A stretch of 31,858 nucleotides of DNA from positions 1 through 31,858 of the IMG/VR virus record IMGVR_UViG_3300033076_000872. One strand, 5' to 3'. Positions 27,611 to 31,774 of the stretch are shown here, in pieces. Made by a program: the position numbers and the translations under genes. The notes below the pieces were generated by a model that searched no databases, had not been told where the DNA came from, and saw nothing but the letters and a program-made list of their open reading frames with translations. This stretch comes from a virus. Its lineage: Duplodnaviria > Caudoviricetes. The number at the start of each line of letters is the position of its first letter. Positions within the stretch are counted from its first letter, which is position 1.

Positions 27611-29152
27611 TTAATAGTACGCGTGCGATTTGCGTTTGAAGAATGTCGGTTCGTCACGCTCGTCGGAGTCCAACGGAATGAAACCACCTTGCCTGAAACG
27701 CAGCAGTGCCTGGCTGGTCGTGTCCACGTAGTCATCGTGCTCGCCGTTCGGAAACGACGCAACTTCTTCGATCACTTCGCGCGCCCAGCGCGTGTCGGGT
27801 GCCCAGACTTTACCTGAGTAGAACAAGTCAGCCACTGCGTTCATACGCACGATCTTATCGTTTCCGCGGCTCGGTGTAAATTCTTGGACGAAGATGCCCA
27901 TGTTCTTGAGCTCTTGGATGAGCGGCGCGCCGGCCGCCTTCTTCTCGATCACGAACGCATCTGGCTCCCACTCGCGGTAGTGTTTGAGCGCAACTTGTTT
28001 CAATTCTGGGAACTCCATGCGGTCCTTGAACGCGTCCAACAGGATGACCTGGGGCGTGTTGTTTTCTTCCTCGTTGTAGAAGACGCCCCACGTGGTGCAT
28101 GCCGAATAGTCTGACCGGGTCTTGGCTTCAAAGGCCGTATCCCATGACTGGATGACGTAGTCACACTTGGGCGGTTCGTCGCCCTCCCAGATGCGCCAAG
28201 ATTTGCGGGAGACTATGGCAGCTGAGTCCGATGTGGGCTGCTGCATGTACTGCGCGTTCCAATACTGCGGGTCCAGCGAAGCCTTCGTCGCCTTCAACGC
28301 GGACAGCGGCCACTGCTCGGGCCACAGCGATTTCTCGTTCTCGGTGTCCTCGTTCAGAATGGCCGGCAGCTCCACGATCTCCCAAGGTATCGCGTTCGGG
28401 TTCTTGGTCTGGTAGTCGATCAGCCGGCCGGTCAGGTCCAGCAGACTCCACCGCGTCATGATGACTATGATCGCGCCGCCCGGCATCAAACGCTGCAAGG
28501 GACCAGTCTGGAACCACGACCACGCCGTGTCGAACGCCAAGCGCGAGTTTGTCTTCACGTCCTGTTCAGAGTGCGGGTCATCAATTACGAATAAATCTGC
28601 ACCGCGACCCGCAAGAGCACCACCCACACCAGCAGCGTAATACTGGCCACCAGCAGAGGTGGACCACTTTCCAGCAGCCTTTTGGTCAGCCGCCACCTGC
28701 GTATTCGGGAAGACTTCACGGTACTCCTCTGAATCAAGTAAATTTCGGATGCGTCGCCCGAAGTCTTCGGAGAGGCCCGCGGTGTGCGTGCCCATGATGA
28801 TCTTCTTGTTAGGGTTATTACCTAGGAAGTACGCTGGGAAAAGGTAGGAGCTGAACTCCGACTTGCCCATACGCGGAGCGATGTTGATGATGACGCGCTT
28901 CTTCTTGCCGTCGATCACGTCTTGGAAAATCTTGGCCAACTTGCGATGGTGCGGCCCAACCTTGAACCCGGGGTAGACCGCGTTGGCAAACCCGAGCATG
29001 TTTCCTTGGGCGGCCGCCAGGCTGGCGCGCTTCTCGCGCACCTCCAACATGTCGAACAGCTCCATCTTGTCTTGGAGCGACATCGTCGGCAACGCCTTTT
29101 GAAGAGCCAGTAGCTCTTCTTTGCTCAGCGTGGTCAGGGCGTCAAGGTTCAC
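27611..29152 (-). CDS. terL: Terminase large subunit, 513 aa
   Basis: Walker A APRMGKS, Walker B FVIDD, coupling motif MTRW, nuclease SWDTA and HDDYVD. Confidence 0.95.
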   Translation of the reverse strand: MNLDALTTLSKEELLALQKALPTMSLQDKMELFDMLEVREKRASLAAAQGNMLGFANAVYPGFKVGPHHRKLAKIFQDVIDGKKKRVIINIAPRMGKSEFSSYLFPAYFLGNNPNKKIIMGTHTAGLSEDFGRRIRNLLDSEEYREVFPNTQVAADQKAAGKWSTSAGGQYYAAGVGGALAGRGADLFVIDDPHSEQDVKTNSRLAFDTAWSWFQTGPLQRLMPGGAIIVIMTRWSLLDLTGRLIDYQTKNPNAIPWEIVELPAILNEDTENEKSLWPEQWPLSALKATKASLDPQYWNAQYMQQPTSDSAAIVSRKSWRIWEGDEPPKCDYVIQSWDTAFEAKTRSDYSACTTWGVFYNEEENNTPQVILLDAFKDRMEFPELKQVALKHYREWEPDAFVIEKKAAGAPLIQELKNMGIFVQEFTPSRGNDKIVRMNAVADLFYSGKVWAPDTRWAREVIEEVASFPNGEHDDYVDTTSQALLRFRQGGFIPLDSDERDEPTFFKRKSHAYY

Positions 29153-29772
29153 TCGTCGTCCGTTTCGGGAGTTGGCAGGGGTGGGGTGGTGTCTTCGGCC
29201 GCGGGGGTTTCGGACTCAACTTCTCTCACGTCGACCACGTCCACGACCTTCATGAATTTGTTGAGCTTCTCTTTGATCTTGGCTTCGAGCTCGTGGTCGC
29301 TCATCTCGGCCTTCTTGACCTCGACGCGTTCTGTGAACAGTGCGACCTCCGTGACCTTGCCCAACATCTCAAGTGCTTTGAGACGAATCTTGGCGTCGGG
29401 GTGTTTGGTCTCTTCGAAGATTTGTGCGACGGCGTAGCCGCGCAGCTCTTTGGCCTGCTCCACGAACTCCCAGTCGTAGGCGGCCAGCATGCCGGTGATG
29501 TGGCGAACTGCCGCAGGCGTCTTCAGGGTGGTGAGCGCTTTGCGCTGTGTGCCCTCGTCCGAGTCAGTAATCATGGCGGTGAACGCAGCCCGGGCCAGCT
29601 TCTGTGTGGCCTCTGCGTGGGCGTCCTCATCGGGAGGCGCGCCGATTTCTTCCAGCCAATCAGCTGTAGCCACCTGTGCGTCAAGCACGGTAGCGGGCCC
29701 CATCTCGTCGATGGGCTTGAAGTTTCCAGACGGTGTGGGTTCCGGATTAAATTGCACCAATTCTTCAAACAA
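29149..29772 (-). CDS. Putative terminase small subunit, 207 aa (alternative in-frame ATG at 29880 gives 243 aa)
   Basis: TTG start 7 nt after AGGAG; RLKALEMLGK helix; overlaps the terL start (ATGA). Confidence 0.7.
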   Translation of the reverse strand: MFEELVQFNPEPTPSGNFKPIDEMGPATVLDAQVATADWLEEIGAPPDEDAHAEATQKLARAAFTAMITDSDEGTQRKALTTLKTPAAVRHITGMLAAYDWEFVEQAKELRGYAVAQIFEETKHPDAKIRLKALEMLGKVTEVALFTERVEVKKAEMSDHELEAKIKEKLNKFMKVVDVVDVREVESETPAAEDTTPPLPTPETDDE

Positions 29773-29785
29773 GCGAAGGCTCCTG

Positions 29786-29814
29786 TTGTCACCTCGATGC
29801 GCGGAGTGTACACT
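29786..29814 (+). promoter_or_regulatory. Sigma70-like promoter for the plus-strand sRNA
   Basis: TTGTCA-N17-TACACT. Confidence 0.65.
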
Positions 29815-29834
29815 CATTTCCGGTAGTGCGGCAA
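29805..29834 (-). promoter_or_regulatory. Putative late-operon promoter overlapping the sRNA promoter
   Basis: TTGCCG-N18-TACACT on the minus strand; its -10 is the other half of the palindrome AGTGTACACT. Confidence 0.5.
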
Positions 29835-29941
29835 GCAGTTGCCATTTTGGCCTCACGGCCAATACTCGGTTTGCTCGCATTGCTTCTCCTCTGGGAGCGC
29901 AAGCTCCTTTCAGCCCCGGCGTCAAACCTGGGGCTTTTTTT
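29821..29941 (+). ncRNA. Candidate ~120-nt small RNA, antisense to the terS upstream region
   Basis: Promoter, G-U-rich long hairpin, UUCUCCU, GCAA tetraloop hairpin and terminator, all on the + strand. Confidence 0.6.
29912..29941 (+). terminator. Intrinsic terminator (plus strand)
   Basis: AGCCCCGG-loop-CTGGGGC followed by T7. Confidence 0.85.
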
Positions 29942-30417
29942 CGCCTTTCTGTTTCTTGGCAGGCATCACCTCAGAGTCGTTAGATTAGGACTCGAGCCTT
30001 CGGCTTATGCTCGTTTGGGCCCCGCGCAGCGGTGGCCGTGTAGAGACAGGGCTTCCACCTGATTCCACCTCGTTTTTACGCCGGCGTGTCCACGGCGATT
30101 CCCGGAAAGAAATTTAGGTTGGCGGCTTGGTTGGTCAAGCATCCTGAGTGGGGTGCCGCCTGTAACGTCATTCCCACCTACACCAACACCCTCAGTATAG
30201 CCGTTTGACAAAAACCTGCCTGATTTTTTCTAAAATTTTTGGGGGTAGTACTTTTGGCTATAAATGGACAGGGTTTGACAAAAATGCAGAAAGTCGATGT
30301 GGAACAGTGTTCATGCGCCGAGCCATGGGGACGGTCAAAAAGGGGATGTGGGGGGTAGGTGGGGTTCGGAACGGGGCAAAATCATGGTTGTCAACCCCTT
30401 TTGAAAACGTGTTGGCA

Positions 30418-31400: not shown

Positions 31401-31443
31401 CAACTTGTTGTGGAGAAGTCATGGGCAGAGCATACCCACCTGA
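31273..31443 (+). CDS. Hypothetical basic early protein, 56 aa
   Basis: GAGG SD before MKQLTLKLP; contains palindrome copy 3. Confidence 0.55.
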   Translation: MKQLTLKLPVDVAWYRARLRALREEHRLLAIADHRRRGTPCPTNLLWRSHGQSIPT

Positions 31444-31774
31444 ATCGGCGAAAAACCCACCTGTTCCCAACATCTGCCCTGTACGTGGGCGTCCCGCAAC
31501 CCGCATGAACATTAGCGAACCCACACCCAGCACCCAGAACACCTATATATATAAATAGATTTTAATAGATATATATATATAAGAGAGGTCACGTGGGTAT
31601 GGACACCTTGGCAAACTTTGTTGTTTTTGTGTTTTAGTTTAAGAGTTTTGGCTAGAAGATGGGTTATCTGGGTTACCCCCATGGGAAATGGCGTGTATAC
31701 TGGCGTTGCCACTAGCCCACAGTAGACGTCAGCTCTTGGGAAGCGGTGGGTATATCAACAAAAGGAGTGGGTAT
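31432..31774. other. Candidate replication origin
   Basis: (TA)n-rich core 31544-31582 flanked by ACCCA x5 on the left and TGGGT x5 on the right. Confidence 0.5.

Follow-up and report, generated by a model that had tools for sequence, protein, structure and literature searches.

A conserved predicted small RNA beside the putative terS gene of tailed phages carries an anti-Shine-Dalgarno seed matching the phages' own early ribosome-binding sites

The C4 RNA of phage P1 is a phage RNA that represses a phage mRNA by pairing. Early-protein shut-off in lytic phages without known shut-off proteins is largely unexplained. Few lytic-phage small RNAs have a function, according to PMC8244752. The antisense RNAs sar of P22, OOP and aQ of lambda, 24B_1 and PAK_P4as15 repress phage mRNAs by pairing, in some cases over the translation start; they address one or two targets each, for the most part in cis and in the control of lysis and lysogeny (PMC12197685). 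The T4 endoribonuclease RegB inactivates early phage mRNAs via the GGAG of the Shine-Dalgarno (SD) sequence (PMC1702504). In cluster K mycobacteriophages, an extended motif containing AGGAG, the start-associated sequence (SAS), is found at the starts of non-structural genes, its function being left unexplained in the cited accounts, and some genomes contain a single copy in the opposite orientation (PMC3203893, PMC12699233). The Rfam family RF02278 consists of toxic small RNAs of Betaproteobacteria and includes the Burkholderia double-hairpin RNAs ncS03, ncS05, ncS27 and ncS62, of which ncS27 can be processed and, when overexpressed, slows growth (PMC5688073).

The window, i.e. the whole stretch of 31,858 nt of viral DNA analysed here, was a tailed-phage fragment with a completeness of 51% (CheckV), the minus strand of which held terL (27611–29152), portal, groES-like, major capsid and tail genes. 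Near-identical sequences were found mostly in freshwater and river metagenomes. About 420 IMG/VR stretches matched one strict pattern for the RNA element described below, i.e. the family has hundreds of members. The closest cultured TerL proteins were those of HTVC023P/027P-type pelagiphages and DSL-LC04 (about 50%). TerS of the window's type was absent from the cultured phages searched, and a covariance model (R1) of the element had no match in 5-kb stretches beside two of the closest cultured TerL genes. The sole match in a bacterial genome was on a 1.7-kb contig (L082) assigned to a Limnohabitans MAG, possibly a phage fragment that was binned with it. Since the window contains little of its own early arm, targets were taken from the closest complete relative fetched (G062, 66 kb), with a TerS 95% identical to that of the window. 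In G062, the strand that bears the predicted RNA also carried a second arm with a DNA polymerase, a helicase and numerous small ORFs, as well as a primase/helicase at the record's far end. In this early arm, a MoxR-like AAA ATPase gene adjoined DUF2201 metallopeptidase/VWA genes (L313:17113–19517).

The predicted small RNA was located on the plus strand at 29821–29941 and comprised 121 nt, the median of its relatives being about 81 nt plus the U tail. The sequence features that the initial annotation had described, including a plus-strand promoter, hairpins, a stem with a GCAA loop and a terminator with U7, were all found in place. The predicted transcript begins with a G-U-rich hairpin of variable length (P1, 29822–29884), which contains an inner UUGGCC/GGCCAA hairpin and hides the AUG-complementary CAUUGC in its 3′ arm. 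P1 is followed by the exposed toehold UCUCCUCU (29885–29892), which is single-stranded in the fold and belongs to an extended seed, CAUUGCUUCUCCU(CU) (29878–29892), that complements early-arm ribosome-binding sites (RBSs) of the type AGGAGAAGCAA(A)UG. A second hairpin (P2, 29893–29908; GGGAGC-GCAA-GCUCCU), of which the structure but not the sequence is kept, and an intrinsic terminator with U7 (29912–29941, stem 29912–29935) complete the RNA; the UUCAG linker before the terminator is also present in host RF02278 RNAs. The 121-nt plus-strand fold had an energy of −53.5 kcal/mol (z = −4.36), and none of 200 shuffles folded as well. The earlier claim of an unpaired UUCUCCU held for UCUCCU(CU) but not for the first U; only the former is exposed, because U 29884 and CAUUGC, the AUG complement, pair in P1. 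A minus-strand RNA was ruled out, as the plus strand gave the better fold in all 68 representatives.

The central part of P1 included an optional insert of about 34 nt (about 29844–29876), absent in L001 and L002; one contig of run X17 also skipped 29844–29876. This GGCC-hairpin insert was gained or lost across lineages (L027, L035, L061 and L444–L467, in addition to the window) and was polymorphic among near-identical phages. Of six RNA-labelled runs found, the four with small word shares (0.06–0.20) provided contigs only, without a readable start, end or strand; two of these four were flagged as probably DNA, and the contigs showed no discrete RNA.

The gene divergent from the RNA likely encodes the small terminase subunit (terS, 207 aa; 29149–29772, minus strand). 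It is located directly upstream of terL and starts at TTG 29772, with an AGGAG SD 7 nt before this codon (29780–29784, minus strand); TerS homologs start at the matching codon. The TerS of the window had no PHROG or Pfam match, and Terminase_2 was matched weakly by two of 126 homologs. Its AlphaFold model (pLDDT 87) gave weak fold matches to 'terminase small subunit' entries (E 0.03–0.6) and no PDB fold match at E ≤ 0.001. Position and these weak matches make the assignment as terS likely. The RNA and terS have predicted promoters that overlap. The sigma70-type promoter of the RNA (29786–29814, plus strand) consists of a −35 TTGTCA (29786–29791) and a −10 TACACT (29809–29814) separated by 17 nt, and the terS/late-operon promoter (29805–29834, minus strand) of a −35 TTGCCG (29834–29829) and a −10 TACACT (29810–29805) separated by 18 nt. 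The palindrome AGTGTACACT is common to both as an overlapping double −10, and the −35 of the predicted terS promoter corresponds, on the minus strand, to the conserved GCAA in P1. About 23 bp separate the predicted transcription starts of the RNA and terS, a distance that is common at bidirectional promoters according to PMC12825309.

Several features were observed behind the terminator of the RNA. The stretch 29945–30200 was an optional insert, which L001 and L003 lacked and of which L002 had a partly different version. An exact pattern for it had no match in IMG/VR, and its fold was no better than shuffles. A part of it (30049–30099) matched Pseudomonas phages D3, PAJU2, Marin and others at 82%, the match in Marin falling over annotated tRNA-Asn/tRNA-Gly. 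ARAGORN detected no tRNA in the insert and no tRNA or tmRNA in the window; a tRNA-like sequence was present at the position of the insert in L271. Further downstream, 30205–30370 contained TTGACA boxes (30205, 30275), an A/T-rich tract, AACAGTGTT and a G-run block (GGGGGGTAGGTGGGG), which were kept in the TerS relatives inspected, including those without the RNA, and are candidates for early promoters, a genome end, a pac site or an origin. A near-palindrome, GGGACACCATGTCCC(A), was repeated in the early arm of the window (approximately 30586, 30915 and 31384) and in G062, and is a possible protein-binding site or recombination repeat. Both phages also had a (TA)n-rich run, in the window between early ORFs at 31545–31582.

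For the conservation analysis, 80 loci with the TerS protein were fetched and the eight ending before the complete element were dropped, which left 73 loci with the window included. The element was located upstream of terS in all 73 of these close loci. The palindrome AGTRTAYACT, a TTG[C/T] −35 on the plus strand, a TTGC −35 on the minus strand, TTCTCCT and the terminator were each present in 73 of 73, and both −35s kept their spacing to the −10 palindrome throughout (18 nt for the minus-strand TTGC). Conservation upstream of terS homologs, a check proposed in the initial annotation, extended to 77 of 80 more distant loci, where R1 detected the RNA just upstream of terS, in 69 cases at E ≤ 0.01; these loci came from a more diverse TerS profile and shared a few contigs with the training set of R1. 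Among 120 pattern-matched loci returned, the element was divergent from a TerS homolog in 112, and the remaining eight had too little flank. Each of 12 longer records contained a single copy at E < 0.002.

The structure was conserved as well. Across 68 representatives below 88% identity, the mean z was −4.5, and UCUCCU was unpaired with a probability of 0.91–0.99 and preceded by paired bases, many of these representatives having been picked by a pattern containing the seed. Two P1 pairs showed 21 and 25 double changes in an unfitted MAFFT alignment, and all five modelled P2 pairs showed changes on both sides. On an alignment fitted to the model itself, 91.9% of cells were paired versus 74.6% when shuffled, and covariation was 0.52 versus 0.21. 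We regard it as almost certain that this is a real, conserved RNA element. In one subclade (L228, L234–L240 and L259), the seed variant GUCUCCGU precedes GGUUGGAGA, which might hide it by folding back.

In G062, numerous early-arm genes start with AGGAGAAGCAAAUG or AGGAGAAGCAAUG, the complement of CAUUGCUUCUCCU in the RNA. The best seed match on the early-arm piece present in the window was the RBS GTGGAGAAGTC-ATG (31404–31423, plus strand; ATG 31421), at −16.9 kcal/mol. Across 12 longer records, with gene starts from our own SD-aware gene caller, AGGAGA was the SD of 114 of 433 early-arm versus 7 of 281 late-arm genes. When gene calling was omitted, AGGAGA-N3-9-ATG was found 151 times on the strand of the RNA versus 23 times on the late strand (12 genomes); G065 and G076 had few AGGAGA sites. 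In 400 kb of one Limnohabitans-genus genome, 10 of 354 genes had AGGAGA, so the early arm is the outlier and the late genes are at background. At ≤ −18 kcal/mol, the window seed matched 10 of 52 early and none of 38 late G062 genes.

The initial annotation had proposed that the exposed anti-SD occludes RBSs in trans. A conserved, structured RNA likely does so, but most of the targets that the annotation named were not supported. Its candidates scored −15.2 (groES), −11.4 (24515 gene), −10.1 (23554 gene) and −9.9 kcal/mol (31052 gene). A few late RBSs matched moderately (groES, and the 25161 gene at −15.5 kcal/mol); GGAGA was kept in only 4 of 14 distinct groES RBSs parsed (89 loci with a groES match), which argues against groES as a conserved target. 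The low AGGAGA count in the late arm, together with the lack of a cognate-seed advantage there (p = 0.65, see below), argues against packaging and head genes. Host mRNAs, also suggested, offered poor extended matches (3 of 354 genes at ≤ −18 kcal/mol in the one sample). The seed matches fall on RBSs in the early/replication arm of the phage itself, mostly outside the window.

Seeds varied by lineage, and early RBSs followed. The seed of L213 complements GGAGAAUCA and its early genes read AAGGAGAAUCAUCAUG, while the seed of G067 complements AGAGACAACAUG and its early genes end in CAACAUG. With pairing energies expressed as residuals after subtraction of row and column means, cognate pairs were stronger by 1.28 kcal/mol over 16 seed types (0 of 20,000 permutations; p < 5e-5) and by 0.82 kcal/mol over 29 phages (0 of 20,000 permutations). 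The cognate advantage in other representatives was 0.93 kcal/mol (p = 0.00025). A control with the 11-nt extension shuffled gave a residual of −0.30 ± 0.17. Late-arm RBSs had a residual of +0.08 (p = 0.65), compared with −0.39 (p = 0.018) for the early RBSs of the same 14 phages. A held-out set of seven seed types from later-fetched loci yielded −0.66 (exact p = 0.0097); four of these types account for the effect, and L435, L455 and L466 showed no signal. Cofolding of the full-length RNA, which covered 10 genomes with G068 and G076 left out, favoured early over late RBSs at p < 0.05 in eight of the 10, the exceptions being G063 and G065. The best dimers opened the 3′ arm of P1 up to the AUG; among relatives, the AUG complement was often lost while the toehold stayed. 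The RNA probably pairs with the early RBSs of its own phage, judging by complementarity and covariation. The loose fit between seed and RBS counts against the model: several genomes were without a cognate or early–late signal, cognate seeds not being favoured in G065, G069, L242, L262 and L268.

A natural comparison was provided by phages without the RNA. R1 detected no RNA upstream of terS in L267, L273 and L274, nor in 24 of 73 further loci scanned, several of these 24 having too little upstream sequence. In RNA-less loci with enough sequence (n = 14), AGGAGA was present in 3 of 163 distinct early RBSs, versus 186 of 481 early RBSs in RNA-bearing loci (n = 38), and the frequency of AGGAGA sites was 0.07 per kb without and 0.99 per kb with the RNA. 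AGGAGT, AGGAGC and AGGAGG differed only 1.5–2-fold between the two sets. In a quick TerS tree, the RNA-less phages formed one group (SH-aLRT 79) with two well-supported subgroups among the RNA-bearing phages. Because the RNA-less group is one clade, the contrast stands for only one or two events in evolution, and it might also stem from a host change. Most members of the clade kept a terS promoter of the TTGC...TACAGT type. In this clade (L273, L395–L406 and L413–L427), terS was leaderless, the −10 being about 7 nt before the ATG in most. The early RBSs of L419 were mostly AAGGAGCAAUG, not AGGAGA; this second tag fits the predicted seed only partly.

A predicted promoter and terminator of its own, a conserved structure, an unpaired seed and covarying sites together characterize the element as a putative trans-acting base-pairing small RNA. 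A trans-acting anti-SD RNA built like the RF02278 toxic RNAs is likely the best model. We estimate the probability that its main job is to repress the phage's own early genes as a regulon at roughly 0.6. Transcription of the RNA would start at the bidirectional promoter from which the late operon is also read. The UCUCCU toehold of the RNA would nucleate on the AGGAGA SD of early mRNAs, and pairing would continue through the 3′ arm of P1, which is rich in G-U, as far as the AUG, displacing the 5′ arm; alternatively, it could extend after processing of P1, as described for ncS27 (PMC5688073). With SD and AUG covered, 30S binding would be blocked and translation of the tagged early genes would fall. 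As the RNA accumulated, early and middle protein synthesis would be shut down while untagged late genes would still be made. The late timing is taken solely from the promoter shared with terS, because the promoter of the RNA is of a plain sigma70 type. The composite of a shared promoter, possible capture from the host, a co-evolving RBS tag and toehold strand displacement as an early-to-late switch of a lytic phage made of RNA only is more tentative, and we would give it slightly less than even odds.

The same targets and the same covariation would be expected if the accumulated RNA silenced the early genes of a second, related phage, i.e. if it served superinfection exclusion or competition between kin. 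An arms race would predict the diversification of seeds and RBS dialects observed across many lineages, and the phage RNAs STnc6030 and sas are reported to act in exclusion elsewhere (PMC12197685). An incoming phage would gain by escape, yet early RBSs stayed matched to their own RNA, and the early tag was enriched about ten-fold over host and late genes. We consider this reading unlikely.

A general anti-SD growth inhibitor of host origin, acting mainly on host mRNAs of the GGAGA type and thereby freeing ribosomes, also appears improbable. It would account for a layout like that of host RF02278 loci, for RF02278 being the best Rfam match (22.3 bits) and for the R1 matches to host loci, and growth is slowed by overexpressed ncS27 (PMC5688073). 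The extended seeds, however, track the phage's own early RBSs, and in the sampled 400 kb of the single Limnohabitans-genus genome, a stand-in for the true host, GGAGA was present in only 30 of 354 genes, with three reaching ≤ −18 kcal/mol. About equally improbable is an RNA that binds the tagged RBSs without being a timed off-switch, whether as a cap, effective as soon as infection begins, on the dose of toxic early proteins, in a dormant carrier state or as protection of mRNAs from host small RNAs or nucleases. The sigma70-like promoter might be active immediately, the SDs of the tagged RBSs are strong, and host RF02278 RNAs have the same UCUCCU core. Against this reading, predicted pairing over SD and AUG would block rather than help initiation, and a PHROGs scan of 54 of the 109 ORFs called in G062 returned no integrase or repressor.

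That the seed has no pairing role at all is very improbable. It would then be a stray inverted copy of the RBS motif, with hairpins that insulate the late promoter from the early arm and with the similarity of the motif copies maintained by recombination or by a protein that binds DNA or RNA. Cluster K mycobacteriophages do have repeated RBS motifs and a single inverted copy for which no function is shown in PMC3203893, and a terminator at this site would be useful by itself; but the motif is single-stranded between two covarying hairpins, the G-U pairs fit only the plus strand, and the toehold is retained in the many relatives that have lost the AUG complement. The original proposal of an RNA that acts in cis, as antisense masking an alternative upstream terS start and repressing packaging and head genes, is hardly tenable: the exact complement of the seed on the minus strand does read AGGAGAAGCA-ATG (29878–29890; ATG 29880) with a perfect SD and in frame with the terS ORF of the window, and a minus-strand promoter-like site lies upstream in the optional insert (30138–30111), but this start is not a conserved feature since only 4 of 73 loci had it open and in frame (it was unfused in 53 and absent in 16), the predicted terS transcript begins downstream of ATG 29880, and late RBSs have neither tag nor covariation.

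The RNA-only switch, if true, would suggest how the unexplained start-associated sequences found in other phages might work, and it predicts a small RNA at the single inverted copy of SAS described for cluster K (PMC3203893). Natural seed variants, matching RBS variants and a natural deletion clade make the mechanism testable. A hairpin-protected toehold that addresses a class of RBSs could also serve as a compact multi-gene repressor.

Among known RNAs, RF02278 was the closest. The Rfam search suggested in the initial annotation yielded no window match at gathering score, the E-value scan being sub-threshold throughout, with RF02278 best at 22.3 bits against a cut-off of 50; in 15 related phage records, no match exceeded the cut-off (best 30.6 bits). 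R1 in turn matched 27 of 30 host RF02278 loci at 13–31 bits, and nine of 16 new Limnohabitans-genus matches read like host RF02278 members. These reciprocal scores are weak, and short RNAs with a terminator can converge. Both RNAs have an unpaired CU-rich anti-RBS stretch followed by two hairpins, the second being the terminator, and host loci share the order of 5′ hairpin, UCUCCU, middle hairpin and UUCAGCCCC linker/terminator. A variable 5′ extension and predicted action on RBSs are also common to RF02278 and the Burkholderia double-hairpin RNAs, and some distant phage members read UGUCUCCU, as the host family does. In host RF02278 loci (L283–L312 and L358–L371), a 5′ hairpin of 20–45 nt lay outside the Rfam model. 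Unlike RF02278, in which the host loops are CU-rich, the window has no second CU-rich motif (the P2 loop is GCAA), although a few distant phage members do have such a stretch. Furthermore, P1 abuts the seed and hides the AUG complement, the RNA is single-copy in the phage, and its seed covaries with early RBSs. The TTGCAGCGCAGCA-like promoter motif upstream of host RF02278 loci was, by eye, not seen in the phage promoters. Because its score is too low and it lacks both the second CU-rich loop and the upstream motif, the RNA was not filed under RF02278; it may have been captured from this host toxic-RNA family.

Compared with SAS, the early RBSs likewise carry an extended SD confined to non-structural genes and one reverse copy, which here is the predicted RNA seed (PMC3203893, PMC12699233). 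They do not fit the 13-bp GGGATAGGAGCCC consensus and instead share AGGAGA with a lineage-specific spacer (by eye). Hosts and phages differ, the tag is looser and varies between lineages, and no RNA partner is described for SAS in those accounts. Our literature search retrieved no report of the element or of a phage small RNA that covaries with its own early RBSs; no motif match was present in the readable files of the Fremin 2023 list (PMC10690425), among the unnamed candidates of which it may figure. Unlike sar, OOP, aQ, 24B_1 and PAK_P4as15 (PMC12197685), the RNA is predicted to address some 5–20 genes in trans via a shared tag. T4 RegB is a possible functional counterpart; RegB is a protein nuclease that needs S1, whereas here an RNA would base-pair (PMC1702504), and the element, if the model is true, would be the RNA counterpart of RegB. 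The anti-SD type of small RNA is already known; what would be new here is a base-pairing anti-SD RNA with a co-evolving phage regulon.
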